Below, one piece after another: positions 1,248-19,240 of a stretch of 64,000 bases of DNA (its first letter is position 1; each line of letters opens with the position of its first letter). Under the pieces are notes generated by a model, which was not told where the DNA came from, ran no database searches, and was given only the letters and a program-made list of their open reading frames with translations. A program made the translations under genes and the position numbers. The stretch lies in the IMG/VR virus record IMGVR_UViG_2576861193_000004, positions 1 through 64,000 of that record; one strand, given 5' to 3'. The stretch is from a virus (lineage: Duplodnaviria; Heunggongvirae; Uroviricota; Caudoviricetes).

Positions 1248-3587
1248 TTAATCTTCTAATTCATCTGTCGGTGATGTCTTCTCGCGCCTGTCATCTATTG
1301 CCTGTAACGCAGCAATGATTTCAGCTAATGGCTTCTCCCGGTACATCTCGACGATCTGTGATTTGGTGTATTTCTTCTCGCCAATTTCCACACGCCCGCT
1401 GGCGCTCTTGGGCAGGTATCCTTCCTCCAGCATGTATTCGACCAGAGACTCGACGACGTCCAGCCCGCGAGTCGGGTCGAAGTAGAATTTCCATGAGCAT
1501 TTGCCAAACGGAGGCGCGACTTTGTTTTTAATGCACTCGGCGCCAACGTCCTGTCCGATCTTCTCTTTGCCATCCTTCATGACGGATGCACCCAGACGGA
1601 TGCGCACCGACGCGTAGAACTTCGGAGAGTCGCCACCCGGAGACGTAGTCGGATCGCCAAACATCACACCAATTTTGGTACGCACCTGGTTCAAGAAGAT
1701 GATGCACGCGTTGTACTTACGCGCCCAAAGCGCCAGAGTAGGGAAGTTCGCACTTGTCGCGCGCGCCAGCGCCGTGTTGTCGTTCATGTTCAGCTGATCT
1801 TTGTCCTTCGCAGTGCCTTCTGCCATCTTGTCGAACTTCTCAGCCTTCGAGTTCGGAACCATCGACGCCAGAGAGTCGGCTACGATGCAGATAGGGGCTG
1901 TTTCCGGAATAAGCTCTTCGTCGCGCACCAGCTTGAGGATTGTGCCGATCAGCTCTACGGAGTCTTCGAAGGTATCCGGCTGTTTGTAGACCCACTGACC
2001 GTCGTCTTCGTCGGCGTTCAGTCCGTTCGCTACCGCCAGACCAACGTCGAAACTGTTTTCGTGGTCAAGGAATACGGCCAGACCATCCTGTTTTTGTGCT
2101 GACACCATCGCAGCCGTCGCGAGGAATGTGTTGTGGCTGATAATCCCGTTAGACCAGAAAGAGTGTGTTTCCGGCATCGCTACGTCGAACGTTGGTGCTT
2201 CACCTTCCTCAATAGCCACGACTTCGTCGTAGAACAAGTTAGAGTCAATTACCGCTGCCAGTTGTGCAAACAGATGCTCGTTAAAACGATTCTTTCTGCC
2301 AATGAAGGAGACATAGATTTCTCGCAGTTTGTCTATTCCGACACGATCGCCGCGGCCAATAACGTGATCTACCAGAACGTAGTCTTTACGAGAGGTCTTG
2401 GTGAGTGACTCGTAGAGTGATTTCACTAAGCCGCTGATGTGCGGAACGTAGCCTAAATAAGTGCGGTCAAAACTAATGTCCCGTTTGGTTGCCACTGCTA
2501 AACGAGCCGGAGACTCGAACCCAATCGTTGACAGGAAAAGGTCGTAGTTAGAGCCACTGAATGACAGCCGGTAATATATGTTTTTATAACCTGCGACGTG
2601 TTTTTCAGAGATAGTTGACGTAATCCCCAGATTCAGGAGCATGAGGCGAATTTGCTGTAGCAGCAGCCCACTCGCGCTCACAACCTCAATGCAGCGACCA
2701 TCATTGACGTGGCATTCCAGCTCAAAGTAGCCGCGAAGGAATGCAATTTGAGCCTCGCTATTGGCGCGACGCACACTCAACGGAACCTGCTTGCCAGCAG
2801 CTTTCTCATACTCCAGACCATATTCTTTAAAAAGCAGCGAACGCACCTCTTTGCTAAACAGCACATGGTCTTCCGAGCCGTTATGTTTTCTCGTAACTGG
2901 CATCTTGTCTGATACCAGCGAAATGAGGCGGTAGTACTCATCCTTGATGAATGGATCTGTGTTAGAAACATGCACAGAATTTTCAGAGGCCACGTATCCG
3001 TCAGCAATTAAATAGCCCATCAGTTTTGCGATATTGGCATCCAAGTGCTGATCGCCGAATTGATGTGTGCCAACCATTGAAGGAATCGTGTCGCCTACAC
3101 TGATTTTTTCAGCATGTCGCCAGACGACATTACCTAAGTCGTCAACCACACGGATTGGGTGACGGAACGTAGCCTCGATATAACCGCCTGATGCCAGCTT
3201 AATACGCTTGAATTTGCGACGGTTGTTCCATGTCAGGTGTGAGGTCTTCTCTATCACGCCATTTTCATTGATGAGTCCAACGTTATGCTCTACATCGCGA
3301 GTAGTGCATGTCGCTTTGTACCCTTCAATCTCAAACAACTCTTTCACTGTTACCATTCCACGCTCCGTCAGCAGCATGGTGTCTGCGGTAACACATTTCC
3401 CCGCGCTTGGTGGCCCGAATACTTCTACGATACGACCACATGGGAAACCGCCATCGTAACGACCGGAAATAGCTTTGTTTAACGGAGGAAAGCCTGTGTC
3501 AATCCAATGAGTTACTTTCTGAATTTCGTCGTTGCTACCGATTTTCTTTTTCAGAGCAAGTGCCAGTGCGGATTTTCCTTTTGCCAT
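1248..3587 (-). CDS. RecA/UvsX-like recombinase interrupted by an intein
   Basis: N-extein ...GRIVEVFGPPSAGK then C-extein TFLATAAMVSAQKQDGLAVFLDHENSFD... reconstitutes a RecA P-loop and core (compare E. coli RecA [20 protein letters not shown]...). Spliced length about 357 aa. Confidence 0.9.
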   Translation of the reverse strand: MAKGKSALALALKKKIGSNDEIQKVTHWIDTGFPPLNKAISGRYDGGFPCGRIVEVFGPPSAGKCVTADTMLLTERGMVTVKELFEIEGYKATCTTRDVEHNVGLINENGVIEKTSHLTWNNRRKFKRIKLASGGYIEATFRHPIRVVDDLGNVVWRHAEKISVGDTIPSMVGTHQFGDQHLDANIAKLMGYLIADGYVASENSVHVSNTDPFIKDEYYRLISLVSDKMPVTRKHNGSEDHVLFSKEVRSLLFKEYGLEYEKAAGKQVPLSVRRANSEAQIAFLRGYFELECHVNDGRCIEVVSASGLLLQQIRLMLLNLGITSTISEKHVAGYKNIYYRLSFSGSNYDLFLSTIGFESPARLAVATKRDISFDRTYLGYVPHISGLVKSLYESLTKTSRKDYVLVDHVIGRGDRVGIDKLREIYVSFIGRKNRFNEHLFAQLAAVIDSNLFYDEVVAIEEGEAPTFDVAMPETHSFWSNGIISHNTFLATAAMVSAQKQDGLAVFLDHENSFDVGLAVANGLNADEDDGQWVYKQPDTFEDSVELIGTILKLVRDEELIPETAPICIVADSLASMVPNSKAEKFDKMAEGTAKDKDQLNMNDNTALARATSANFPTLALWARKYNACIIFLNQVRTKIGVMFGDPTTSPGGDSPKFYASVRIRLGASVMKDGKEKIGQDVGAECIKNKVAPPFGKCSWKFYFDPTRGLDVVESLVEYMLEEGYLPKSASGRVEIGEKKYTKSQIVEMYREKPLAEIIAALQAIDDRREKTSPTDELED
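2130..3395 (-). mobile_element. intein (about 422 aa) with LAGLIDADG homing-endonuclease domain inserted in the recombinase P-loop
   Basis: Begins with Cys right after GPPSAGK, ends with HN followed by Thr (+1); internal LMGYLIADGYV motif; boundaries computed from residue positions 65 and 486. Confidence 0.8.
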
Positions 3588-3589
3588 GA

Positions 3590-3862
3590 TCAGGCTCCTT
3601 TTGTTTCGTTGATTCGTTTTAAAGCGGCGGATTCGTCGAATACAATCGCATCGTGATTAAGGAGTCTGGATACACGAGCGAGGATTTTTACGACCTGCTC
3701 GCTGACTAATCCAAACTCGCGATCTGTCGCTTTCATTCCGGCAGCGCCTAGAATTGACGGCAGTGCGATGACAGCGTACTCACCGTGATAAAAGACAATC
3801 TCTTTTGCCAGTTGGGTGGGGGTGGTTGTAGCGCCATTAATAATCGATTTAAGCATTAGCAA
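3590..3862 (-). CDS. hypothetical protein
   Basis: 90-aa ORF between the flap endonuclease and recombinase genes on the same strand; no recognisable motif. Confidence 0.4.
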   Translation of the reverse strand: MLMLKSIINGATTTPTQLAKEIVFYHGEYAVIALPSILGAAGMKATDREFGLVSEQVVKILARVSRLLNHDAIVFDESAALKRINETKGA

Positions 3863-4800
3863 TACCTTTCGAATGGAAGAACAAACACTTCAAGGTCTTC
3901 AAGGAACGAACGGAAATTCAGCTCGTAGCACAGTTGCTCGAATGCTTTCACGTCACGATTGCCTTTGATTGTTTCGATTTCGGTAGGCGGAAACTTCGTC
4001 TCAATCAGGTTCATTAGCGTGATGTTTCTCTTGAACGCTTCGAGCATTCGACAGCCTGTTTTCTCGTTGAAGGCATTCTTCGCTAGTTTGTTGAAGGCGG
4101 TCTTATGGCGTCCTTTGTCAACCACGATTGAGCCGTCGTTGATGCCGCGTACCATCGTTGCGACACTTCCCCATTCATGCAGCAGCTCTTTCGCACCGCC
4201 AGCACCAATGCCACCAACACCGCTAATGTTGTCCGATTTATCGCCTTGTAATGCTTTTGCTTCCAAAAATGCGCGAGGAGTAGCGAATCCTGTCAGCTCC
4301 GCAAATTGCTCAAAATTAACCTGCTTGTTTTTGGCGTCTTCGCGCAGGCTTACCCAGCTTACGTTTTCGCGAACTAACTGAAGCCAGTCGCTATCGCCTG
4401 TTAACAGATAGATGTGTTCAACGGTTGGCTGCGGTGCCATGCGGGATACCAGCAGCCCGGCCAGATCATCCGCTTCTGCATCTTTTGCAATGAGTTGGGT
4501 AACTCCAAGCGCGGTCATCATTTTGAGGATGTATGGCTTCTGGATAGCAAAGCCTTCCTTCATCTTTTTCATATCAGGATCGTCGTCGCGATTTGCCTTG
4601 TAGTCCGGGTAAAAGTCGCGACGCTTGTCACTAAATCCATCCCAAAGAATCATAGGTCGGGCATGGAGGATGGAGGCATAACGACGGACGTTCTTAACAA
4701 AGCCGAAAGCAGCCTGTACTTCCATTTCGCCGTTGTGCAATTTGTCAGATTGTTGGTGGTAATAACCCAGGCTATTGCCATCTACGAAGAGATAATTCAC
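3856..4800 (-). CDS. 5'-3' exonuclease / flap endonuclease (FEN, T5 D15 / RNase H-like)
   Basis: VDGNSLGYY N-terminal motif, GDSDWLQL, and H3TH motif GVGGIGAGGAKELL. Start moved to GTG at 4800 (GGAAGG Shine-Dalgarno 9 nt upstream) because the track start at 4851 overlaps the upstream terminator hairpin. Confidence 0.85.
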   Translation of the reverse strand: MNYLFVDGNSLGYYHQQSDKLHNGEMEVQAAFGFVKNVRRYASILHARPMILWDGFSDKRRDFYPDYKANRDDDPDMKKMKEGFAIQKPYILKMMTALGVTQLIAKDAEADDLAGLLVSRMAPQPTVEHIYLLTGDSDWLQLVRENVSWVSLREDAKNKQVNFEQFAELTGFATPRAFLEAKALQGDKSDNISGVGGIGAGGAKELLHEWGSVATMVRGINDGSIVVDKGRHKTAFNKLAKNAFNEKTGCRMLEAFKRNITLMNLIETKFPPTEIETIKGNRDVKAFEQLCYELNFRSFLEDLEVFVLPFERYC

Positions 4801-4815
4801 CGGTACATTCCTTCC

Positions 4816-4850
4816 AAAAAGTAAGGCGTCCGTAGACGCCTTACTGGTCA
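4816..4850 (-). terminator. rho-independent terminator after the SSB gene
   Basis: Perfect 10-bp stem gtaaggcgtc / gacgccttac with a 4-nt loop, followed on the minus strand by TTTTT. Confidence 0.7.
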
Positions 4851-4860
4851 CGTAATGGGA

Positions 4861-5889
4861 TTACAGAGAGTCCAGCTCTCTCAGTAGGTCATCCAGACCT
4901 TCATCTTCCGTCGCAGATGCGGTTGCTACAGATGTCGCTGCGACTGCTTCAGACTCTTTGACTGATACGGCAACGGCAGCGGAACTTGCCTCTGGTTTAA
5001 ATTCAGTTTCAACGGCACGGAGGATTTCTTCATCAACCAGACTGGTTGGTTCAGAAGCCGGTGTGTGCGCGGTTGCTACAGCCGTCGCTCCTTCTGTATG
5101 ACCAGTGACAGAGCCAAATCCAGGTAGTGCCGCAGCCGATGTTTTCGCGGTTGAGGAAATTGCTGGTGCAGATGCTGCGGCAGTTGGTGCAGCGATGCCA
5201 ATCAGACGACCCATAGTGCGAACTGTCGACAGAAGACGAGTTTCATCAGCCTGATTTGCGTATGCGATCAGATCATGCTGGGTGTTCCAGAATTTATCTT
5301 CGATATCGCCTTTGTAGACTTTACGCTTAGGCGAGACGTCATATTTGGTATCGCGACCAGAGCCAGTACGTTTAATCAGGAATGCGTAGCCTTCCTCTTT
5401 GCTCAGTGGATTGCCGATATCATCAGCGATGTCTTCGGTGATTGCTTTGCAGATATCATCGAATACAGTAGACGGCAGCTCGATTAACTGGCATTTCTCA
5501 GCATCTGCGAAATCCTCACGAGCAGAAAGAATGCCGTTGACCAGGTAGCGAGGAGTGGCACGCATTTGACCGATGCGTTCTTCCATTGCTTTGTTACCCT
5601 TGTGACGAGCGCGACCTTCCATCACCATTTCGCATAGCTGACAAGCGCGACCATGAGTATGTTGCTCACAAATATAAGCGATGGTTGCTTCTTTACCTTC
5701 CTCGTTCTGATACTTAACGTAGTGCATACCGAAAGTCTGGAAGAACTTACCGTTTGGGTCGTCCTTATTCGGGAAGATACGGATATAGTTGACGCCATCT
5801 TTTAAGCGAGTCAGATCAACGTTGTTACCACGTTTGGCGGCAATGTCTTCACGAGTTTTGTTAAGCAAATCAAGTAATGTCTTAGACAT
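4861..5889 (-). CDS. single-stranded DNA-binding protein, T4 gp32-like (putative)
   Basis: YIRIFPNK resembles the gp32 IRFLPSK region; Cys/His cluster CEQHTHGRACQLC (possible zinc site); Ala/Ser-rich linker and acidic C-terminus DEGLDDLLRELDSL typical of SSB tails. By-eye similarity only. Confidence 0.5.
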   Translation of the reverse strand: MSKTLLDLLNKTREDIAAKRGNNVDLTRLKDGVNYIRIFPNKDDPNGKFFQTFGMHYVKYQNEEGKEATIAYICEQHTHGRACQLCEMVMEGRARHKGNKAMEERIGQMRATPRYLVNGILSAREDFADAEKCQLIELPSTVFDDICKAITEDIADDIGNPLSKEEGYAFLIKRTGSGRDTKYDVSPKRKVYKGDIEDKFWNTQHDLIAYANQADETRLLSTVRTMGRLIGIAAPTAAASAPAISSTAKTSAAALPGFGSVTGHTEGATAVATAHTPASEPTSLVDEEILRAVETEFKPEASSAAVAVSVKESEAVAATSVATASATEDEGLDDLLRELDSL

Positions 5890-8357: not shown

Positions 8358-8390
8358 TATAAACCCGCCAACAGGCGGGTTTTCTTTATT
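8358..8390. terminator. bidirectional rho-independent terminator between csp and the polymerase gene
   Basis: Hairpin cccgcc-aaca-ggcggg flanked by an A-run upstream and ttttctttatt downstream; serves the plus-strand csp unit and the minus-strand polymerase gene ending at 8389. Confidence 0.6.
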
Positions 8391-11300
8391 ACTTATTTAT
8401 TGTCTCCGCGATATCAGCCAGAATGGCCTCCAGTCGCTCTCCTTCTTCCGGTCGGAAGTACAGGATATTCGGGTTAAATCCGTAGAAGACGGTTGCATCA
8501 AGCTCTGGGAAGTACTCCTTACGACCAATCAGATCTGATGGTTTACTCTTATTGTTAAATAGTGCGGTTGAACGACTACCACACGTCAAAATGTAGGTTG
8601 GTCGTACAAGATTAATTTCTTCCCGCATAAAGTCTGTGAACTGGCCTATCTCGTCTTTGGTATAGTCTTTCTCTTTGTCCTTAACCTTCTTACAAACACC
8701 CGTGACATAAAGATCGCCCATGCGCAGATCTCCAACTGTCAGTAGTTTTGCCTTAAAGTCGTCGTATCCGTTCTCCATGAAGTAGCCGGTACGAGCGTCA
8801 TTGCCGTTCGCATTGTCCAGAATGATCATGATTTTGGGTTTAATACCAATAGTCGGGCGTATCAACTCCTCACCCAAGCCCATTTCAGCCGCCATACGTG
8901 TCATGAGTACGTTGATTTCGGCAGAACGCTTAGGATTCATTTCGAACGGACGTGATGCTTTAACAGCGTCAATGATGAGATTGCCCATCAGCTCAGCCTG
9001 GTCGCGCAGTCGTTCAGGATCAGTTGCTGGCAGACTGCCTGGCTCAATTGACGCAAAAGCCCCTACTTTATGAAGCGACTCGCGTACACGACTGTTACAT
9101 GCACGCTTCTCGACCGCTTCATCGAATTGTGCCACTGACTCGAATTTGCCACCAACTTTCTCACGCGCACGCATAATTGCCTGACAACCATTTTCAGAAC
9201 AGCCTTTCACAGCAGAGAATGGCGCATACAGTGCCTGACTGCCGTCTTCGAGTGTGCGGATCTCAATTCGGTTAGATGACACATTAACGTCTGGTGGCAA
9301 TACGCGAATGCCATAGGTCAGCGCATCCTTCACCAGCCCCTGATGCTTATCCTCGCCCAGAATGGTGAGCGCAGCTGCGAAGAACTCAGCAGGGTAGTGC
9401 GTCTTTAGCCACATAGACTGATAACTGATTAAAGAATAAGCAACGGAGTGTGATTTATTGAAGGCATATCCACCGAACTTCTCAAAGGCGTCCCATATTT
9501 CTTGGGCTTTTTCCTTACTGAGACCTTCTTGTTCAGAGACGATCTCCACGTAGTCTATGCCGTCACTAATAGCCTCGCTGTAGCTTCTACGCTTACCGTC
9601 TGAGCAATCCAGTTTTGCGTGTTTGTGAACCTCTACAGTACCTCCATTTTTGAGTGACAGTGTCACCCAGCCTGCTTGTGCTCGTTCTACAAAATCGCTG
9701 CCGATCGCTTTCATCTTATCCATGTTCTTTTTACCGATAGCGGAACGCAGAGCGTCTGCTTCGGCCATAGAGAACCCGGCAAGTACTCGGGAACTTTGCA
9801 TGATTTGTTCCTGATAGAGCAAAACACCATTAGTCTCCCGGGTGACTTCCTCAAGACGCGGATGAATTGAATGTGGAGCCATGAAGCCTTTGGCCACGGA
9901 GACATAGTCGTCCAACATGCCGGATTGGATCGGGCCAGGTCGGAAGAGTGCGGTCGTGGCGACAACGGTTTTAAAGCTCATTGGCTCAATGCCACCGCCT
10001 AGATCTTTAAGCAGCTTGCGCATGGGGCCGGACTCCAGCTGGAATACGCCCTGTGTATACCCTGCAGCAAAACCATCCAGCACCTTGCGATCTTCAAGAG
10101 AAATGGCATCAAGATTGATATCTTCACCTGTGTTCTCTTTTATGTAGCGTTTTGCACTATCGAGCAAATCGAGAGTTGCCAGGCCAAGCACGTCCAGCTT
10201 AATTAGGCCCATAGCCTCGCAGTAACGCTTATCAAATGCGATACAACGCGCGTCACCACGGCGCTCAACCGGTGTACGTTCTGTCAGAGGAACACCTGCT
10301 ACAATCATCCCTGCCGCATGTCTACCAAAGCCACGCATAAGGCTTTGTAACTTGCAGGCTGCATTGAATGCATCAGGATATTTTGTTGCGTATTTGTCGA
10401 GACTTGCCAGTTGTTCGCGCAGCTCTTCCAATGGAAGGCTATCATCCTCGACGTTCTTCAGTTCTTTTGATACCGCCATATCTGCGGACTCCACACCATA
10501 AATACGAGCGGTGTCACGTAGTGCAGAGGCTGCGCCCAGGTAGGTGAAGTTCGGAATGCCTGCAACGTAATCTTCGCCGTAGCGTTCATTCAGATACTCG
10601 ATCACCTCATGGCGACGTGCCTGGCTGAAGTCCAAATCCGCATCTGGCAAGTCGAGACGCTCAGGGTTGATGAAACGTTCAAACAGAAGACCGTGACGGA
10701 TAGGGTCGACGTTGGTTATGCCTATGCACCATGCCACCAAAGAGCCAGCGGAGGAACCACGACCAGGCCCGACAGGAATGCCAGTTTCACGGCTGTGATT
10801 CATCAGATCGCGTACCATCAGGAAGTAACCACAAAATCCCAGGCGAGTAAGCGTGTCCATTTCGTACTTAAGTCGCTCAACATAAACCCTGTTCTCAGAA
10901 GCCGGTGGTGTGTATCCAAACTCTTTTGTGGTAAGACGTTTACGCAGCCCTGCAACAGCCAGTTTCATCAGCGTTGCAGGTTCGTCGTCTGCCATCTTGG
11001 GCAGTGCTGGTGGCAATTCATGCCAGCGCCATGTACAGGCTTCGATAATGGAGTCCTGCGTTGTTGAGGCCATTGCAGCTGTTACCGGCACATCCATGCG
11101 AACGGAGAAGGCTTTAAGCGCCTCAAGGAGATGGCGGCGACCATTGACGGCGTTATCTCGCTGGTGGGGTATACGCAGACGATGCGGCTGGTCGATTTTT
11201 ATGTTGTTCGTAACCATGTGCGCAATGTCTTTAATGTCTGCATCGTCGATCGATTCGTAATAAGCGGGATAGAACGCTACTGGCTCTATTTTCAGTGCGC

Positions 11301-11895
11301 TGGCTACTTTCATCGCTCGGACGTTAATCTGGTCGTAGAATGGGGTAGGGTGCGGATAAACCACGCTATAGAAGTTGTCTTTCCCGCCCGCTGTAATCAG
11401 TGAGCTTATGATTTTTGCAAAATCGTTGCGTTGGAACACGCTACCGATGTCGGAAGTGAGCAGGATGATGTTGCCTTTGGCATATGTAGAAACCAACTGT
11501 TCGAGCGAGAGACGCGGTACAAAGTAGAACTGTTCTCGTGTGTTGGCCACCGTCATTAGTTCGCAGATGTCGCGATATCCTTGCTCATTTTTAATTAGAG
11601 CGGTAAACGAGTAGTTACGTCCCCGCTCTAATGATTCCATACATCTCATAGATTCTTTAGCAAGTTTAGCCCGGTGCTCGTATGTGGGATCATCAACGAT
11701 ATTTAGTTTCACACCACAAATAACCGCCATGTCGTCACCAGCGGCACGTTGTAGTGGAATAACACTCGCAATATTCATGCTATCTGCTGAAATTACAGCG
11801 GTGTAGCCAGCTTCTCTGGCAATCTTCACCGCGTTTTCTGCTTTTAGAGCCGACTCCCCAAGTGAGAAGTCAGTTCGAACCATCAGTGCTTTCAT
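8389..11895 (-). CDS. dnaE: DNA polymerase III alpha subunit (DnaE-type replicative polymerase)
   Basis: 1168 aa; N-terminal PHP-like region, polymerase core motifs (e.g. GYAFNKSHSVAYSLISYQSMWLKTHYPAEFFAA) and a C-terminal OB-fold region aligning by eye with E. coli DnaE. Confidence 0.9.
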   Translation of the reverse strand: MKALMVRTDFSLGESALKAENAVKIAREAGYTAVISADSMNIASVIPLQRAAGDDMAVICGVKLNIVDDPTYEHRAKLAKESMRCMESLERGRNYSFTALIKNEQGYRDICELMTVANTREQFYFVPRLSLEQLVSTYAKGNIILLTSDIGSVFQRNDFAKIISSLITAGGKDNFYSVVYPHPTPFYDQINVRAMKVASALKIEPVAFYPAYYESIDDADIKDIAHMVTNNIKIDQPHRLRIPHQRDNAVNGRRHLLEALKAFSVRMDVPVTAAMASTTQDSIIEACTWRWHELPPALPKMADDEPATLMKLAVAGLRKRLTTKEFGYTPPASENRVYVERLKYEMDTLTRLGFCGYFLMVRDLMNHSRETGIPVGPGRGSSAGSLVAWCIGITNVDPIRHGLLFERFINPERLDLPDADLDFSQARRHEVIEYLNERYGEDYVAGIPNFTYLGAASALRDTARIYGVESADMAVSKELKNVEDDSLPLEELREQLASLDKYATKYPDAFNAACKLQSLMRGFGRHAAGMIVAGVPLTERTPVERRGDARCIAFDKRYCEAMGLIKLDVLGLATLDLLDSAKRYIKENTGEDINLDAISLEDRKVLDGFAAGYTQGVFQLESGPMRKLLKDLGGGIEPMSFKTVVATTALFRPGPIQSGMLDDYVSVAKGFMAPHSIHPRLEEVTRETNGVLLYQEQIMQSSRVLAGFSMAEADALRSAIGKKNMDKMKAIGSDFVERAQAGWVTLSLKNGGTVEVHKHAKLDCSDGKRRSYSEAISDGIDYVEIVSEQEGLSKEKAQEIWDAFEKFGGYAFNKSHSVAYSLISYQSMWLKTHYPAEFFAAALTILGEDKHQGLVKDALTYGIRVLPPDVNVSSNRIEIRTLEDGSQALYAPFSAVKGCSENGCQAIMRAREKVGGKFESVAQFDEAVEKRACNSRVRESLHKVGAFASIEPGSLPATDPERLRDQAELMGNLIIDAVKASRPFEMNPKRSAEINVLMTRMAAEMGLGEELIRPTIGIKPKIMIILDNANGNDARTGYFMENGYDDFKAKLLTVGDLRMGDLYVTGVCKKVKDKEKDYTKDEIGQFTDFMREEINLVRPTYILTCGSRSTALFNNKSKPSDLIGRKEYFPELDATVFYGFNPNILYFRPEEGERLEAILADIAETINK

Positions 11896-12075
11896 GTGTT
11901 TTTACCTTTATGGTTTTTTTGATTTTGTCATTGGGGAAGCCTACGAACTTCCCATACATCGAAATCGCAACTTCTTTTGCTGATTGGTGACAATCGGGCT
12001 TGTCTGGACATACCAGACAAGCCTTACCAGTTTCAGAAGCAGCGATAAGAGAGCCGAAACATCCTTTACGCACGA

Positions 12076-13311
12076 TCAACCAAATATTTTTTGAACAACT
12101 TCACGAGCCGCTTGTGCAGAAGCTGAAGGGAGTTTGTTAATGAAAGAACGCTCAATACCTGTCACAAAGTCGCCTCGCATCATTCCAATCTTGGCCGACA
12201 ACAAAAGTTCACGAGGGCCAATTGGCTGACTGATAAGGTGTTCTTCGTATCCATCGCGAACGATACCGGCAAACTTAACCATCTTTTCTGCGTATTCATC
12301 CACGATACCGGCATTTATCAACATGTTGATCTCTGCCTCTTTGCTCATGTATTTCACATTCGAAACGATGCCAAAACGCGAAAAGTTCGCGGCGTTCTGG
12401 ATGTTTGTACCCTGGTACAAGCCGGTTTCATCACCAGATCCGTTCGTGTTGCCAGTGCCAATGAAAGCAAACCGTTCATGCGGAGTAATGCGACGCCATT
12501 CTGGAGTCGCCTCTTTGATGACCAACGCTTCACCTTCCAGCACTGGCTGATACACGCCAAGAATCTGTGGAAACGCAAAGTCGTATTCATCCGCGAGGTA
12601 AACCCAGCCATGCTTCATTGCGAGCGCAAGCAAGCCAGGCTCGAAATACGTAGAGCCATCACGCGCCAGAATTTGCCCCGTAACATGTGCCTCTTCCATT
12701 GATGCTGTATGTTGGGCACGGATCAACGGACGATTGAGCAAAGCACATAGTTGTGTAGGCAATGACGATTTGCCTGTTCCTGCATGACCCCACAAATAGC
12801 CAGGTATGCCAAGTTCAAGCATCATGAAAATATCTTTGATCAGTTCGAAGTCGCCATATACGTAGCCTTTCTTCACTTCGGGAACGAACTCTGGATACGG
12901 CGTATTGACGTTGACGCTAACCATGAGCGGCGTCCCACGTTTTGTTCCGAGTTCTTCCACCGTTACGTTTAGCAGTTCGTGAGCTGCGACCAGATCTGTC
13001 TTGTACTCAACTGTGCCTGTGTAGCCAGGGCTACTGGTCAAGCCAGAAGATTTGGCCATTTCGCTTTTTTGCTCGGCACGTTTAGCTTGAATTGCATCAA
13101 GTGCCTTTTTCGATAGCGTTGGTTCATCTGGAAACTGCGTTGTGTACATTTTCAGTACGGTGTCAGGATCGGCATCTTTTACTGACTCAGGAATGCCCTC
13201 GCAATTACCATTGGCTACATGGGACTTAAAATAGTGAAATGATTTTCCGCACCACTTGCAAACAAGGTAATCAGAAGGATTTTTTTCATTTTGCAGTGCA
13301 GTAGTAGTCAT
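12076..13311 (-). CDS. CobS-like MoxR-family AAA+ ATPase with N-terminal zinc-ribbon
   Basis: Walker A GHAGTGKS, Walker B VYLADEYD, sensor region FAFIGTGNTNGSGD; N-terminal CKWCGK...C. Confidence 0.8.
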   Translation of the reverse strand: MTTTALQNEKNPSDYLVCKWCGKSFHYFKSHVANGNCEGIPESVKDADPDTVLKMYTTQFPDEPTLSKKALDAIQAKRAEQKSEMAKSSGLTSSPGYTGTVEYKTDLVAAHELLNVTVEELGTKRGTPLMVSVNVNTPYPEFVPEVKKGYVYGDFELIKDIFMMLELGIPGYLWGHAGTGKSSLPTQLCALLNRPLIRAQHTASMEEAHVTGQILARDGSTYFEPGLLALAMKHGWVYLADEYDFAFPQILGVYQPVLEGEALVIKEATPEWRRITPHERFAFIGTGNTNGSGDETGLYQGTNIQNAANFSRFGIVSNVKYMSKEAEINMLINAGIVDEYAEKMVKFAGIVRDGYEEHLISQPIGPRELLLSAKIGMMRGDFVTGIERSFINKLPSASAQAAREVVQKIFG

Positions 13312-13406
13312 GCGTTTTTCCTTTGTTTTCTAATGAGCGTTCAACTTCTTATATAAATATATCATTATCTATCGTAAGTGGTTACTTATCGTTAAGGCTG
13401 TTTTGT

Positions 13407-15515
13407 TCACTTTAAAATGATACGAGATAGTTCAGTAACTACAGATGAACCAAGACTATCAACGCTCGTTACCAGGGCATGATTTGAGTAAAATCTCTCC
13501 GGTGCGTCAGTCATGATGCCAATTGCCATCAAATCAATGTCAGTCTGCGTTTCAATTTGCTTCGCAACCGAACGCAAATGAGCGTCAAAACCTCTCCCAA
13601 CAGCCCACGGCTCGCCATCGCTCAGAACAAGCATGATCTTCCTGTCCTCCATGCGACCGGAAAATAACGATGCAAGGCTGGCTATGCTTTCACCATCCAC
13701 GTTATTAAGAAGTGGGAATGTGTAGCCTACGCACCCCATACGTGAGCGAACTTCGCGAGAATTTACCTTTTCATTCCAATTTTTGATGATAGGTAGCATT
13801 AAAGATTCAAAGCGAGAGAACTCATACTTGACAGCCTTAAGTTCTCCTGCCGCCATATGACTACCAAATGTAGTGAAGCCGGTGATAATGTTGGGAACAT
13901 TTATTCGATCAAGGGCATCGGCGATGGTATATGCACTTGCAAGAGCCAATTGTATCGTTATACCCCTCATTGAACCTGATAAATCAATCACTTGTTGAAC
14001 ACAGGCGTTAACGGCTTTAGATTCTTCTTTTTTACGAAACACGCGATCATCATTCATTGCTAATCTGTAGATACTAGAACCATGAATGCGCCCCCGACGC
14101 TGGCCCGGTATAAACTGAACTCTGTTTCTGCTTGCTATTGCTCGCTCCAGGTCTTTTGCCAGCGTCGACGAAACACCTGACGAAAGATGCTTTTCAATAT
14201 ATTTGTCGAAGAGCTGGTTGCCTTCAGGAACGATGCGATAGCGGCTGATTGGACATCCTCCTAAATCAATATCGGAGAATGTTTTAATAAGCCGTTTGAT
14301 ATGGGCTTCTGCCTGATCAATCGAGCCGATGAAGTCGTATGAGCGATTGTATGGCCTGTATTCGCTTTTCGAGCTTTCTGTTAACTCGCTTTTAATCGTT
14401 TCGGATAGAGCATCTTCTGTCATGCCTCCGACTTCATCTTCTATGCTATCCAGCTCCTCTAAAGCCTCTTCCAGACTCATTTTTGACGGAGTTGGAATAT
14501 CTGAAGAGCCGTCTTCTGTCGTTTTTCTTTTTTCGTGGTCAGCGGTTAATGATTCTGACGCCGCGTTATCAGAAGCATCAGAATCTGATACCTCTTTATC
14601 ATTTTCTGTATCATCGAATATTGTTTCTGATGATTCAGAATTATCTGAATCATCGCTGTCGTTATTATCATGTTTGTGCTTACTGTGTGATTCTGATTTG
14701 ATAGATTTGTGATTATCTAACGCTGAGGGTGTCTCATGATCTTCGTTGTCTTCATTGTTTTCTCCAGAGGCATCCGTCTGGTCAGCGTCTGAAGGATCGG
14801 AAGTTTTTCCCGGAGCTGACTCCTTACCTTTGCTTTCACTTTCAGTGTCTTTGAGGATCTTAGCTATGGTCGCAGCCACCTTTACACAATCCTCGGTGCA
14901 AGACATGTTACGCACGGCCACATCGATACCATGTTCTTTTAATAATGAAATTGGTTTCTCAATGACAGGCCAATATTCATCCATGAAATCTACGAACGGT
15001 GCTTGGCCATCCCAGGCTCTTACAACCGGACAGAGAAAGAAGTTTAGAAAAAGCGCGCGCTGATCTTTGCCACAATAAGCAATAGCCTCTGAAGCCTTTG
15101 GTTTAAAGACTTTTTCGATTATAAGGCGCTGAGTTGCCATCAGATTACGTCTTGTTCCGTTAAAGATCTGACCCATTTTTCGCTCGATGAACACGTCTTC
15201 TAAGGCATTCCATAGCGACCAGGAAGGAACGCGTCCTTTTTCTCTCATTTTGTTGGACACACGAATATCGGTAAACAAAATGTGAGCAACCTCATGATCG
15301 AGAAATCCGCGCACAGCATTCATCAATGCCGGTGTTGCGTTATCCGGGATTGATGGGATGTTTACGAGAATTGGCTCTCCATCATCGTTATAGCGTACAT
15401 AAGCGTCGTCCCCTCGTTCTGCAACAGGGATGTTTTTACCTGAAAGGAGAGCGACTACTCGTTTTACACTGTCACGGAAGTCCTGAACCTCTTTGATGGA
15501 ACGTTTTTTAGACAT
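13407..15515 (-). CDS. CobT-like von Willebrand factor A (VWA) domain protein with long acidic disordered linker
   Basis: C-terminal VWA-like region (VIDLSGSMRG ... LVLSDGEPW); central 150-aa stretch extremely rich in D/E/S; gene immediately downstream of the AAA+ partner. Confidence 0.75.
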   Translation of the reverse strand: MSKKRSIKEVQDFRDSVKRVVALLSGKNIPVAERGDDAYVRYNDDGEPILVNIPSIPDNATPALMNAVRGFLDHEVAHILFTDIRVSNKMREKGRVPSWSLWNALEDVFIERKMGQIFNGTRRNLMATQRLIIEKVFKPKASEAIAYCGKDQRALFLNFFLCPVVRAWDGQAPFVDFMDEYWPVIEKPISLLKEHGIDVAVRNMSCTEDCVKVAATIAKILKDTESESKGKESAPGKTSDPSDADQTDASGENNEDNEDHETPSALDNHKSIKSESHSKHKHDNNDSDDSDNSESSETIFDDTENDKEVSDSDASDNAASESLTADHEKRKTTEDGSSDIPTPSKMSLEEALEELDSIEDEVGGMTEDALSETIKSELTESSKSEYRPYNRSYDFIGSIDQAEAHIKRLIKTFSDIDLGGCPISRYRIVPEGNQLFDKYIEKHLSSGVSSTLAKDLERAIASRNRVQFIPGQRRGRIHGSSIYRLAMNDDRVFRKKEESKAVNACVQQVIDLSGSMRGITIQLALASAYTIADALDRINVPNIITGFTTFGSHMAAGELKAVKYEFSRFESLMLPIIKNWNEKVNSREVRSRMGCVGYTFPLLNNVDGESIASLASLFSGRMEDRKIMLVLSDGEPWAVGRGFDAHLRSVAKQIETQTDIDLMAIGIMTDAPERFYSNHALVTSVDSLGSSVVTELSRIILK

Positions 15516-15613
15516 GGCTAATCCTTTGTTATGAAAACAAATTATTTACTAGTGTGTTTAATGTAGCACTGCGCGAACAGGGAACTAAGCCATTCGCGCA
15601 GGGAGAAGAGGGG

Positions 15614-15826
15614 TTAACAGATTCTGACGGCTAAAGACCCGGAGCCGGTATTGAGAAGCGTGAAGCGTTTGTTGTTAAGTTCGAATATAAATCCAGTTGT
15701 GTCATTCACACCAACCTGAATCTGCTCATTCGGTAGATCGGTGAGGATGTCAGCTACACACTCATCAGCTAATTTCTGTACGTGTCCGATCTCAAGAGCG
15801 ATTAGGCTGGAAATAGTGGTGTTCAT
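15614..15826 (-). CDS. hypothetical protein
   Basis: 70-aa ORF downstream of the VWA gene on the same strand; no motif. Confidence 0.35.
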   Translation of the reverse strand: MNTTISSLIALEIGHVQKLADECVADILTDLPNEQIQVGVNDTTGFIFELNNKRFTLLNTGSGSLAVRIC

Positions 15827-16077
15827 TCAATCAATCCATTCTAACTTATACTATGGTAAGGAATACTACTAAAATTTGTATCAATACTGAATACATTCAT
15901 ATCATATGCAAGTTGATTTTCTTACCTGTTTTGGGCTAATTTTTCTCCGTGCAATGGCCTTTAACCGGTCTTTTAAGTGCCTATCGAAAAAAATGATAAT
16001 AGCTTTACAACCCTAACCTTTGATGTAATATCGGTAAGCACTTACCAGAGAGAATTGAACGCGCAAAGGTTGTAACC

Positions 16078-16464
16078 ATGTCTGATAACAAGATTGAATT
16101 TATAGAAAGTCGCTACGCTGCTTTTATCGCAGGGTTGATTGAATCCTCACCTATGAGCCAGGCCCAGATAGCCAAAACAATTGGGTATAAAAACGCCAAC
16201 AACCTTTCTTTAATTAAAAGCGGCAAAATTCCTTTGCCTATCGATAAGGTTCGTCCGCTGGCGCTGGCACTGGGTATTGAGCCAAGTCGTCTTATGATGA
16301 TGGTGCTGGAAGAACGCCAACCCGAACTCGCAGCATTTTTATACAAAGAAGGCACTGCTCCTCTTAACGAGGACGAAAAACAGGTTCTTGCTGCATATAA
16401 CGAGCGATTCGGTAAAGAGAAAGGCGCATCACAAAAGGTTGTTGAGGCCATAAAGTCTCTATGA
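16078..16464 (+). CDS. XRE-family helix-turn-helix transcriptional regulator
   Basis: HTH segment MSQAQIAKTIGYKNANNLSLIKSGK; 128 aa; convergent with the recombinase gene. Confidence 0.7.
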   Translation: MSDNKIEFIESRYAAFIAGLIESSPMSQAQIAKTIGYKNANNLSLIKSGKIPLPIDKVRPLALALGIEPSRLMMMVLEERQPELAAFLYKEGTAPLNEDEKQVLAAYNERFGKEKGASQKVVEAIKSL

Positions 16465-17562
16465 AAAATTTACACGAATAAGCTCTGTTGATAGACGATC
16501 TCCCTTAAATTTGTGGTCAATTTCGTCTAAATCCGGTTGCTCTACGATTGATGCGATGTACGTCGAGAAACTTTCTAAGGCGTCTCGCATCTCGTCCATA
16601 TAATCGTGCCGGTCGTAGACCCGATCTATCCCCTCAAGACTGTGGTTCATGATTTTACGTGATACCTCCTGGCTTATGCCTAATGCTGGGAAGTAACTAC
16701 GCGCAGTACGGCGCAAATCTCGGGGTGTAAATGGCTCAAGCTCCATCAGTTCTGGTCGTTCCAGAATACGACGTAATGCCTGGGCTATTGCCACTTTAGA
16801 CATAGGAAGGTCTTTCCCGATTTTTTTATTCGAAGGCACGAGCCACTGGCTGTCTTTACCATATTCGAACAACTCTTCAATACAAGTGCGCATTAATGAG
16901 CTTAAAGGCAGAGAATGCTCACGGGCAGATTTGTTCCTCTTGCCTTGATTCCAAACCCCACGCTTAAGATTGAACTCACTTTTTTTAGCCCGCAGTACTT
17001 CGTCAGGTCGTCTTGCGGATACAAGACATAGCCTGGCAGCCCATTTTGTACCAGCACACACATTGAAGTAGTCCCATATATTCCAGAACACCCATACCTC
17101 TGCGTCGGTCAGCTTCCGCTCGCGAGGTGTGGGCTTTGCGCCACCGGCAACTTTGTTAAGTGACATATCGTTTAACGGTGACACGTCTATCATCCCCTGG
17201 AAGGCGCACCAGCTAAGGAACTGCTTCATCAGAGAGAAAACGCGGCGGCCCATAACAATTTTGCCATCCAGTATTAGTGGGTTGACCAGTTGGTTCACCA
17301 TGAACCTATTAATGTCACTTACTTTTACATCGGCAATGTGCGGCAAAACATGTATCAAAATACAATGAACAGCGATCTCTGGCCGACGTCTGGTTATCAG
17401 CAGAGATAAGCGAGTGAATAACATGAATGCGTCCGAGAATCTCATGTCATTGCTAACCTGCGAGATCATAACGGCCTGCATTTGAGATGCTCTTTCGAGA
17501 TACTCTATCGCCTCTTTTGAGGTGTTCTCCGCAGCGCGTGCTCTGTCAAAGCTATTTTTCAT
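16459..17562 (-). CDS. int: tyrosine site-specific recombinase (phage integrase family)
   Basis: Catalytic-domain residues in order: ARRPDEV (Arg), PRDLRRTA, MNHS, RVYDRHDY (Tyr). Could be an integrase or a multimer-resolution recombinase. Confidence 0.8.
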   Translation of the reverse strand: MKNSFDRARAAENTSKEAIEYLERASQMQAVMISQVSNDMRFSDAFMLFTRLSLLITRRRPEIAVHCILIHVLPHIADVKVSDINRFMVNQLVNPLILDGKIVMGRRVFSLMKQFLSWCAFQGMIDVSPLNDMSLNKVAGGAKPTPRERKLTDAEVWVFWNIWDYFNVCAGTKWAARLCLVSARRPDEVLRAKKSEFNLKRGVWNQGKRNKSAREHSLPLSSLMRTCIEELFEYGKDSQWLVPSNKKIGKDLPMSKVAIAQALRRILERPELMELEPFTPRDLRRTARSYFPALGISQEVSRKIMNHSLEGIDRVYDRHDYMDEMRDALESFSTYIASIVEQPDLDEIDHKFKGDRLSTELIRVNFS

Positions 17563-17660
17563 ATGACAATCACCGAGTTACGCCGATGCACTGTATAAGT
17601 AAACAGTATATTAGGCATAGATTCTTATAGGATCAAGAGTAAAAGTAACTCATTTTCAGC

Positions 17661-17693
17661 AATGATTCCATACATAGTAGGTATGGAATCATT
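17661..17693. repeat. perfect 13-bp inverted repeat AATGATTCCATAC / GTATGGAATCATT with 7-bp spacer
   Basis: Read directly; the right arm recurs as single copies at 19434..19446 and 20446..20458. Confidence 0.8.
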
Positions 17694-17772
17694 TTGACGT
17701 TGTTTTTTGAATTTTAAGGGAAATGGGAGTGAGTTTGGTGGGAATAAAAACGGCTCCTGTGAGCCGTTAAAA

Positions 17773-18586: not shown

Positions 18587-18673
18587 TGGCGGAGAGTAAT
18601 GGAATCGAACCATCATCGCTTGCGCAATGGGACGGTTTTCAAGACCGCTTGAGCACCATGCTCCCTACTCTCC
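18587..18673 (-). tRNA. tRNA-Ser: tRNA-Ser (anticodon UGA), type II with long variable arm
   Basis: Manual fold of the reverse complement: 7-bp acceptor stem GGAGAGT/ACTCTCC, discriminator G, encoded CCA, T-loop TTCGATT, anticodon loop CTTGAAA. 87 nt. Confidence 0.8.
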
Positions 18674-18772
18674 AGCTATTGTGATGGTCGGTGCTGAACT
18701 CCGACACAGGGTTGTAGCAAGCCCCGCAAAGCGCGCACTACTGTAGTTGCGGCACATCAGCCTGTGCATTCA

Positions 18773-18862
18773 TCACAACGGTAAGATCACTACCTTTCGA
18801 CCAGTCATTGTGCACATGAACGACGATTAACCGTAATGATCTTATCGTTGTGTTGTGAAGCC
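18773..18862. repeat. long stem-loop 1 in tRNA spacer (arms CACAACGGTAAGATCA / TGATCTTATCGTTGTG)
   Basis: About 17-bp inverted arms with one mismatch, separated by about 50 nt; paralogous to stem-loop 2. Confidence 0.6.
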
Positions 18863-18900
18863 AGATGCTTATCTTCTGGTTGCTTCAAAGAGCTGCACTT

Positions 18901-18996
18901 CCTCACAACGGTAAGAGCACTGGTCTGACTCTATCGATTTACGGGCTTGTGGGTCAGTATCGCCGATTCGCCCAATGCTCTTACCTGTTGTGTTGG
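18901..18996. repeat. long stem-loop 2 in tRNA spacer (arms CACAACGGTAAGAGCA / TGCTCTTACCTGTTGTG)
   Basis: About 17-bp inverted arms separated by about 50 nt; right arm abuts the 3' end of tRNA-Thr. Confidence 0.6.
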
Positions 18997-19069
18997 TGCC
19001 GGTTAACGGGATCGAACCGCTGACATCCTGCTTACAAGGCAGGCGCTCTACCAACTGAGCTAAACCGGC
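18994..19069 (-). tRNA. tRNA-Thr: tRNA-Thr (anticodon UGU)
   Basis: Reverse complement GCCGGTTTAGCTCAGTTGGTAGAGCGCCTGCCTTGTAAGCAGG...GGTTCGATCC...AACCGGCACCA: D-stem GCTC/GAGC, anticodon stem CCTGC/GCAGG, loop CTTGTAA. 76 nt. Confidence 0.85.
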
Positions 19070-19073
19070 AATT

Positions 19074-19160
19074 TGGTGGGGAGTGATGGAGTCGAACCAC
19101 CCGAGTCGCAATGACAGTAGATTTACAGTCTACCCCGCTGCCCCTACGGACTAACTCCCC
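19074..19160 (-). tRNA. tRNA-Tyr: tRNA-Tyr (anticodon GUA), type II
   Basis: Acceptor GGGGAGT/ACTCCCC, anticodon arm GTAGA-CTGTAAA-TCTAC, long variable arm, T-loop TTCGACT, CCA encoded. 87 nt. Confidence 0.8.
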
Positions 19161-19165
19161 TAAAT

Positions 19166-19240
19166 TGGCGATGGTGGGTGGATTCGAACCACCGACCAGT
19201 TGGTTAACAGCCAACTGCTCTACCGCTGAGCTACACCATC
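19166..19240 (-). tRNA. tRNA-Asn: tRNA-Asn (anticodon GUU)
   Basis: Acceptor GATGGTG/CACCATC, D-arm GCTC-AGCGGTA-GAGC, anticodon arm GTTGG-CTGTTAA-CCAAC, T-arm GGTGG-TTCGAAT-CCACC, CCA encoded. 75 nt. Confidence 0.85.

Follow-up and report, generated by a model that had tools for sequence, protein, structure and literature searches.

The stretch of DNA analysed here (the window) comprises 64,000 nucleotides (nt), positions 1 to 64,000 of IMG/VR record IMGVR_UViG_2576861193_000004, and represents an SSU5-like phage-plasmid of E. coli. On its minus strand, between positions 12076 and 15515, are two adjacent genes whose products resemble the cobaltochelatase proteins CobS, an AAA+ ATPase, and CobT, an adaptor bearing a domain of the von Willebrand factor A type (VWA). 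The data suggest, with a probability of about one half, that the pair is a CobST-type AAA+ motor and adaptor acting in phage DNA replication as an ATP-driven protease or remodeller guided by an adhesion site dependent on metal ions (MIDAS), and not a chelatase. Observed directly were the homologous relationship of the two proteins to CobS and CobT, the completeness of their ATPase and MIDAS motifs, the conservation of an HExxH motif in the adaptor, an operon shared with dnaE and synteny in related phages. The original prediction for this DNA had described an ATPase gene followed by a VWA-protein gene; both open reading frames (ORFs) are present at 12076-15515 on the minus strand, but their order is reversed, the VWA protein coming first in transcription and the ATPase second. 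The two genes and their parts are as follows (aa, amino acids).

13407..15515, minus strand: CobT-like gene, 702 aa (zincin-like N-domain, acidic linker, shaft, VWA/MIDAS domain)
14853..15515, minus strand: N-domain (aa 1-221), predicted M48-like gluzincin fold
15282..15296, minus strand: HEVAH, zincin catalytic motif HExxH (aa 74-78)
15183..15200, minus strand: EDVFIE (aa 106-111), with E106, D107 and E111 as candidate third zinc ligands
14361..14849, minus strand: acidic, Ser/Thr-rich disordered linker (aa 223-385), recognized by composition
14007..14126, minus strand: shaft-like segment (aa 464-503), from a phmmer alignment to 9uka_G (CobT Q373-R413)
13413..14042, minus strand: CobT_C/VWA domain (aa 492-701), matching CobT_C profile positions 1-219 of 220
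13971..13985, minus strand: MIDAS D511-x-S513-x-S515, completed by N605 at 13701-13703 and D633 at 13617-13619
12076..13311, minus strand: CobS-like AAA+ ATPase gene, ORF of 411 aa
13087..13269, minus strand: N-terminal zinc-finger domain of the ATPase (aa 15-75), with C18, C21, H26 and H31, plus C37
12079..12888, minus strand: AAA+ module (aa 142-411), from a residue-by-residue alignment to Brucella CobS

The N-domain of the CobT-like protein combines HExxH with a downstream acidic residue as candidate third ligand, the signature of a zincin at motif level. In a search of 1.8 billion 50%-cluster representatives, from which the best 150 matches (30-57% identity to the query) were taken, HExxH was found at the same place in 143 of 146 full-length representatives. 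Residues D73, H74, E75, H78, E106, D107, E111, G120, N124 and R166 were invariant in a 26-sequence alignment, and E106, D107 and E111 were 98-100% conserved, the glutamate that binds zinc being a candidate among these. An AlphaFold2 model of the N-domain (pLDDT 92.5) consists of one helix, a three-stranded sheet and a helical bundle, which is the topology reported for CobT_N and likened by the authors of the CobT structure to peptidase family M48C. The N-domain is thus predicted to have a zincin (gluzincin, M48-like) fold. A profile of the phage N-domain searched against PDB sequences did not reach the CobT_N of 9uka, and the link to genuine CobT_N rests on Pfam, on hhalign (E 3.9e-4, 36% probability) and on the identical topology.

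Genuine CobT proteins from Brucellaceae and Methylorubrum, each encoded beside cobS, read G-D-S-M-A-L-R where the phage protein reads L-D-H-E-V-A-H, and S[MI]AL[RK] occupied the HExxH position in all 69 parsed CobT loci of different Hyphomicrobiales species. This sample of genuine CobT was drawn from the Alphaproteobacteria only, with N-termini recovered from genomic DNA; the proteins listed in a search with the Brucella CobT C-domain were all truncated. The downstream E..E and G...N positions are common to the phage N-domain and genuine CobT. Among phages, HExxH is also found in Vibrio phage ICP2 gp41, Syn9 gp150 (annotated as 'peptidase'), Rhizobium phage RHEph10 and Roseobacter phage CRP-810. 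The phage family therefore appears to have kept a zincin active site that the chelatase adaptor CobT has lost and, because the N-domain keeps this motif, proteolysis rather than remodelling alone is the likely output of the domain. The original prediction regarded the VWA protein as part of a chaperone-like remodelling machine. The motor-adaptor part of that view holds, but as a pure adaptor the protein is incompletely described, the HExxH-bearing N-domain having been overlooked.

Three further observations concern this domain. P0294, P0319 and P0342 (motifs KEVAN, HQVAL and QQVAR), together with the homologue of Pseudomonas phage nickie, have lost HExxH and kept the MIDAS, and are natural catalytic-dead variants. 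A tblastn match to the N-domain only (aa 1-187, 33% identity) was found in Salmonella Typhimurium (AB571791.1, 31364-31855, 'conserved hypothetical protein') and may represent a stand-alone copy of the peptidase-like domain. A match between aa 99-150 of the CobT-like protein and the anti-CRISPR AcrIIA26 (PDB 9zq6_B residues 42-94, E 0.0086), extending over N..ED..IE...G...N, was rejected as a chance resemblance of acidic helices because AcrIIA26 is a DNA mimic with a novel fold, whose N46, E49 and D50 contact the PAM-reading arginines of Cas9.

The remainder of the 702-aa protein follows the CobT architecture of M48-like N-domain, acidic disordered linker, shaft and VWA domain with a MIDAS of the form D-x-S-x-S...N...D. 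Matches to Pfam CobT_C (276 bits) and CobT (96 bits) and to phrog_1576 (E 1e-300) confirmed its assignment as a VWA-domain protein. The C-terminal half aligns with the solved Brucella CobT C-domain (E 1e-17), and the MIDAS, which the original prediction had left to be looked for, is complete: D511, S513, S515, N605 and D633 correspond to D422, S424, S426, N518 and D546 of the solved protein and are 100% conserved in 147 homologues. Within the shaft-like segment, positions G471, G475, 482, D489, R491 and F493 are 87-100% conserved. In the CobSTN structure literature the CobT shaft (Q373-R413) enters the CobS ring pore, and by analogy the phage segment may be inserted in the same way. The hyper-acidic linker, predicted at 150 aa, is real and 163 aa long (51 D/E, 14 K/R and 44 S/T); among the 147 homologues it ranges between 79 and 340 aa with acidity maintained (median D+E 37%). 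Genuine CobT has an equivalent linker of approximately 90 aa, disordered in the structures, indicating that the linker is an ancestral trait of the family; a role as DNA mimic or bait was set aside for the same reason.

Assignment of the 411-aa protein as a MoxR-type AAA+ ATPase was likewise borne out, with matches to Pfam AAA_5 (E 2e-15) and phrog_249 (E 2e-106). Its closest PDB sequence match is Brucella CobS (9ujv, E 2e-25), followed by midasin, CbbQ and NorQ. With the motif list taken from the CobS structure paper, all five ATPase elements were found intact: Walker A G175-S182, Walker B D241/E242, sensor-1 N288, arginine finger R312 and sensor-2 R367, aligned with G71-S78, D141/E142, N186, R210 and R271 of Brucella CobS. 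These elements were 100% conserved in 112 homologues. At the N-terminus the two proteins differ. Genuine CobS encoded next to CobT carries CobS_N and AAA_5, whereas the sole Pfam match at E<=0.01 in the phage protein was AAA_5, with no CobS_N (PF12556); an extension of approximately 140 residues stands in its place.

This extension contains the finger core C18-x2-C21-x4-H26-x4-H31, which is at least 91% conserved across homologues, the majority of which read K-I-T-C-x-I-C-G-A-x-V-H-S-I-Q-x-H-L-x-x-x-H-P at this position. The core was compared with the Ros/MucR ligand pattern C-x2-C-x9-H-x3-4-H. Thirteen of 23 diverse homologous N-termini matched Pfam ROS_MUCR (PF05443) at E<1 (best 2.8e-4), all of them under the gathering score, and a precomputed PF05443 match is present in two homologues; the N-terminus of the window ATPase itself gave no ROS_MUCR match. 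These weak but convergent signals suggest a Ros/MucR-like C2H2-type zinc finger, and the zinc ribbon originally proposed, which would have four cysteines, does not fit the ligand set. The finger may bind DNA. It is limited to the DnaE-type phage group, the ATPases of ICP2, Syn9 and CRP-810 being without it.

The original doubt about a chelatase label is supported by the curated models. Despite homology to CobS and CobT, the ATPase scored 84.9 bits against the cut-off of 558.55 for the NCBIfam CobS equivalog TIGR01650, and the adaptor 67.5 bits against 759.05 for the CobT equivalog TIGR01651. The claimed lack of a cobalamin pathway was also upheld. The full annotation of Escherichia phage Cyrano, which is 99.5% identical over the 4.1-kb region of the pair, includes no CobN or other cobalamin gene. 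The window holds no CobN-sized ORF of unknown function, its ORFs of more than 1,000 aa being DnaE and three whose size and order on the map agree with those of the tape-measure, J and tail-fibre genes of Cyrano. Cyrano encodes a ribonucleotide reductase of the NrdAB type, which needs no B12. E. coli, Salmonella and Klebsiella are not known to have the aerobic CobN route. In PMC6249242, E. coli had to be engineered to carry it. Viral CobST has been proposed to hijack the CobN of the host (Liu et al. 2021, PMC8651126), a hypothesis that would not apply here, the enterobacterial hosts not being known to have CobN and none being annotated in Cyrano. Public annotations of the pair read 'porphyrin biosynthesis' in Salmonella phage SSU5 and 'cobalamin synthetase' and 'dimethylbenzimidazole phosphoribosyltransferase' in Cyrano (14277-17716), and the Cyrano names were apparently taken from the CobS and CobT enzymes of Salmonella nomenclature, which are unrelated. 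A literature search found no experiment on any phage CobS or CobT. As a separate observation on genuine cobT, a frame shift at approximately codon 175-190 was present in two unrelated assemblies, of a Brucellaceae strain (3460-5380 of the locus) and of Methylorubrum extorquens (3420-5329), with a truncated product called at 442-459 aa; it could reflect sequencing error, pseudogenisation or regulation, and the majority of other genuine cobT loci have intact ORFs of approximately 644 aa.

The position of the pair points to replication, and annotations of Cyrano and SSU5 agree with the replication-region setting given in the original prediction. Besides Cyrano, the 4.1-kb region was 97.5-98.8% identical to CMS-2020a and PhiR41_1 and approximately 75% identical, over the aligning part, to SSU5. 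The transcription order is 70-aa ORF, cobT-like gene, cobS-like gene, 69-aa ORF and dnaE, the genes flanking the pair being as follows.

15614..15826, minus strand: conserved 70-aa ORF upstream of cobT (phrog_2627, E 9e-41)
11870..12079, minus strand: conserved 69-aa ORF between cobS and dnaE (phrog_6337, E 2e-44)
8389..11895, minus strand: DnaE-type DNA polymerase III alpha subunit (Pfam PHP, DNA_pol3_alpha, finger and HHH_6), last gene of the unit

The 70-aa ORF is probably the first gene of the transcription unit, and a divergent helix-turn-helix (HTH) repressor-like gene starts upstream of the unit at 16078. An AAGGA Shine-Dalgarno sequence precedes each of the cobT-like and cobS-like genes, the cobS stop codon overlaps the start of the 69-aa ORF (TTGA), and the end of this ORF shares 26 nt with the beginning of dnaE. 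No terminator-like site was found on the coding strand between the 70-aa ORF and dnaE, and a hairpin lies 3' of the dnaE stop (8361-8382). The genes from cobT to dnaE are co-transcribed as one operon, and cobS, the 69-aa ORF and dnaE are probably translationally coupled. Location of the pair in one operon with the phage DNA polymerase indicates that the B12 label is probably wrong. The product of the 69-aa ORF, which has four cysteines (C7, C21, C24 and C30) and is annotated in SSU5 as SSU5_051 and left unannotated in Cyrano, could be a partner or client of the CobS/CobT-like machine.

Searches for related loci with a single protein or with the 26-sequence alignment returned SSU5-like loci only, and wider context was obtained by tblastn against isolate phages. 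An AAA_5 ATPase gene beside a VWA-MIDAS gene was kept in all related loci examined. The recurring order ligase, cobT, cobS, (sigma70_r2-like), dnaE, SSB, 5'-3' exonuclease and RecA was seen in SSU5, Pseudomonas phage nickie and Rhizobium phage RHEph10, in marine and environmental contigs with an ATPase approximately 45% identical to the query, and in a contig with 33% identity in the CobT-like protein. The podovirus ICP2, which is unrelated, has the pair immediately upstream of its primase, helicase and family-A polymerase (PolA) genes. In Syn9, a T4-like cyanophage, the pair has gp47/gp46 on one side and the clamp and clamp-loader genes gp45/gp44 on the other. The pair is thus found in or beside replication and recombination modules in phages with three different replication systems. 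CobS-like matches were present in 694 phage records. In cyanomyoviruses cobS has the profile of a core gene, its number being close to one copy per genome whatever the environment, and the cyanophage literature itself calls its function unknown.

In some distant relatives two genes separate cobS from dnaE, one for a sigma70_r2-like protein of 204-224 aa and one for a protein of 160-200 aa; the 69-aa ORF at this position in the window showed no detectable kinship to the sigma70_r2-like proteins. The DnaE of these relatives is fused to a uracil-DNA glycosylase domain, for which the window DnaE gave no match. Kayvirus- and P100-like myoviruses of Staphylococcus (132 records) and Listeria (68 records) encode an AAA_5 ATPase approximately 25% identical to the CobS-like protein.

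A mechanical template is available from recent CobSTN structures, in which CobS6:CobT:CobN is organized as a motor ring with the shaft in its pore and CobT_N on the small subdomain (preprint 10.64898/2026.07.21.739949). The client in these structures is clamped between CobT_N and the MIDAS face. The motor-adaptor remodelling suggested by the original prediction follows from this solved architecture. In the proposed model the phage CobS-like protein would form a hexameric ring with the CobT-like shaft in its pore, and the N-domain would dock where CobT_N does in the solved cobaltochelatase, on the small AAA+ subdomain. A protein client, in the place of CobN, would be held between the VWA MIDAS site and the N-domain, and ATP-driven movement of the adaptor would present it for cleavage or remodel it; cleavage is included in the model because the HExxH site is still present. 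The Ros/MucR-like finger on each ATPase subunit would probably place the machine on DNA. The client is most likely a DNA- or replisome-associated protein of phage or host, as suggested by co-transcription of the genes, the probable coupling of cobS, the 69-aa ORF and dnaE, and the zinc finger. The geometry of the complex, protease activity, DNA binding and client identity are predictions of the model.

Among the known systems most like the pair is Brucella melitensis CobS/CobT (PDB 9ujv and 9uka series), with which it has in common adjacent genes, an AAA_5 ATPase with Walker A/B, sensor-1, arginine-finger and sensor-2 residues at equal positions, and an adaptor comprising an M48-like N-domain, a disordered acidic linker, a shaft and a VWA domain in which all five MIDAS residues agree. 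The phage pair differs in sequence (approximately 25-30% identity), in an intact HExxH in place of S[MI]AL[RK], in a zinc-finger extension in place of CobS_N, and in having a DNA polymerase operon and no CobN partner. The MoxR-vWA pair of jumbo and T4-like phages and the cyanophage 'cobS' and 'peptidase' genes form the same two-gene module with the same domain order, and Syn9 gp150 and gp153 share the HExxH at approximately residue 64-70 and the MIDAS motif; the cyanophage ATPase, however, is only approximately 29% identical and has no zinc finger, and the cyanophage linker is less acidic. NorQ/NorD, CbbQ/CbbO and RavA/ViaA each resemble the pair in having a hexameric AAA_5-type motor, one VWA/MIDAS adaptor and a client, but their adaptors are without a peptidase domain, they have no zinc finger and their clients are metabolic enzymes. 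Midasin/Rea1 shares AAA_5 modules (PDB matches E ~1e-11), and its MIDAS domain, which follows a D/E-rich linker, grips substrates so that they can be removed at the expense of ATP; unlike the phage pair it is a single giant eukaryotic polypeptide acting on pre-ribosomes, and it has no peptidase domain.

Several points weigh against a protease or remodeller in replication. All steps of the mechanism are predicted from sequence, gene context and the structural template. The acidic linker, the shaft and the E..E motif are also features of genuine CobT and hence do not discriminate between the two functions. HExxH has been lost in Pseudomonas phage nickie (SEISK; 8974-11058) and in 3 of 146 representatives, indicating that catalysis is dispensable in those lineages and that the adaptor role may be the core one. 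Shared ancestry, and not function, may account for synteny among the DnaE phages, and closeness to replication genes may mean only early or middle expression. In CRP-810, the stretch examined has no annotated replication gene other than an endonuclease V DNA-repair gene.

An alternative is a host-takeover or anti-defence protease, which would capture and cleave a protein of the host (a nucleoid silencer, a factor of restriction or defence, or a replisome part, for example) and would not serve the phage replisome directly. This alternative is possible, if unlikely. An early-class gene setting beside a divergent repressor-like HTH gene fits it, as does a zinc finger from a family whose known members bind DNA, but no match to known defence or anti-defence models was obtained. 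PADLOC gave only a trivial DrmE match on the linker, similarity to ArdC and SPRTN is of the kind common to zincin folds in general, and the borderline match to AcrIIA26 was attributed to chance, as described above. The pair is moreover kept in phages of cyanobacteria, Vibrio, Rhizobium and E. coli, and conservation across such different hosts speaks for a target that is itself conserved and does not evolve fast. A vWA-MoxR ternary conflict system was also considered and rejected. The third component of such systems is VMAP, iSTAND, FtsH or a beta-propeller (Kaur et al. 2020), and none is present here, the neighbours being the 69-aa ORF, the 70-aa ORF, DnaE and the HTH protein.

Slightly more doubtful is a narrower form of the replication function, in which the pair would be a DNA-tethered AAA+-driven metalloprotease that removes or cleaves DNA-bound proteins ahead of the phage DnaE replisome. 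Candidate targets would be host nucleoid silencers, stalled replisome parts and roadblocks, and the machine would be a bacterial-virus counterpart of the eukaryotic SPRTN/Wss1-p97 arrangement. The comparison with SPRTN/Wss1 and p97/Cdc48 is a functional analogy offered as a hypothesis, homology not extending beyond the zincin fold and the AAA+ proteins belonging to a different clade.

A non-proteolytic chaperone or adaptor, in which HExxH would bind metal or peptide without cleavage and the client would be remodelled or metallated as by NorQD, CbbQO and CobST, appears improbable. Characterized MoxR-type/VWA pairs do remodel or metallate and do not cleave, a few lineages have lost HExxH yet kept the gene, and many inactive peptidase domains are fused to vWA proteins (Kaur et al. 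2020). Against this, HExxH and the downstream acidic residues persist in approximately 98% of representatives, including those with identity as low as 30%, and also in distant lineages; such persistence is difficult to account for unless the site catalyses or, at the least, binds metal.

Improbable to the same degree is a virion-assembly chaperone and processing protease, a role that Iyer et al. 2021 (PMC7824862) proposed for the MoxR-vWA pair of group 2.2 jumbo phages, in which a metallopeptidase is N-terminal, and one comparable with that of the MoxR/VWA pair of Acidianus two-tailed virus. The domain make-up is the same, with a metallopeptidase N-terminal to vWA and a MoxR-type ATPase partner. 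However, the pair has early or replication genes around it in all lineages examined and is not in a structural module, and in the window it is coupled to dnaE with structural genes more than 15 kb away on the map. While the published proposal for the MoxR-vWA-peptidase pair is virion assembly, the context of the window pair points to replication, and gene context argues against an assembly role for this family.

Some hosts of related phages, for example Rhizobium, make B12 aerobically, and full-length homology to CobS and CobT extends to the shaft and MIDAS. That the genes are genuine auxiliary metabolic genes, whose products stand in for host subunits or add to them and raise cobalamin synthesis through the CobN of the host, as published by Liu et al. 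2021 (PMC8651126), is nevertheless very improbable given scores far under both equivalog cut-offs, a CobS_N missing from the Pfam matches, an intact HExxH under purifying selection that genuine CobT is without, the lack of CobN in the phage and of the aerobic CobN route in enterobacterial hosts, and the location in the dnaE operon.

Elsewhere in the window, the HTH repressor-like gene and a tyrosine integrase gene (16078-17562) lie between the cobT operon and a tRNA cluster; SSU5 has neither gene at this place and tRNA-Asn directly follows cobT. The cluster (18587-19240) contains four tRNA genes, Ser-TGA, Thr-TGT, Tyr-GTA and Asn-GTT, of which Cyrano is annotated with Ser, Thr and Asn only. 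A RecA-like recombinase gene (1248-3587, minus strand) encodes 779 aa, a length explained by insertion of an intein with a LAGLIDADG homing endonuclease at approximately aa 73-486; the SSU5 homologue is uninterrupted at approximately 358 aa.

The module itself is already known in PHROGs and Pfam, and its peptidase-vWA architecture was noted earlier (Iyer et al. 2021). New here are the difference from genuine CobT at HExxH, the presence of a Ros/MucR-like finger in the ATPase and a connection with replication modules that spans lineages. Phage 'cobS' and 'cobT' are among the most commonly reported auxiliary metabolic genes and are routinely taken as evidence of viral B12 boosting. Because the protease site is kept, the curated thresholds are failed and the pair travels with replication genes of three polymerase types, this label is probably wrong for at least the enterobacterial phage-plasmids, and more widely. 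The recent CobSTN structures offer a concrete mechanical template for the function of phage cobS and, if the pair is a DNA-tethered protease, the 'cobS' B12 gene of marine viromics would be a core replication accessory.

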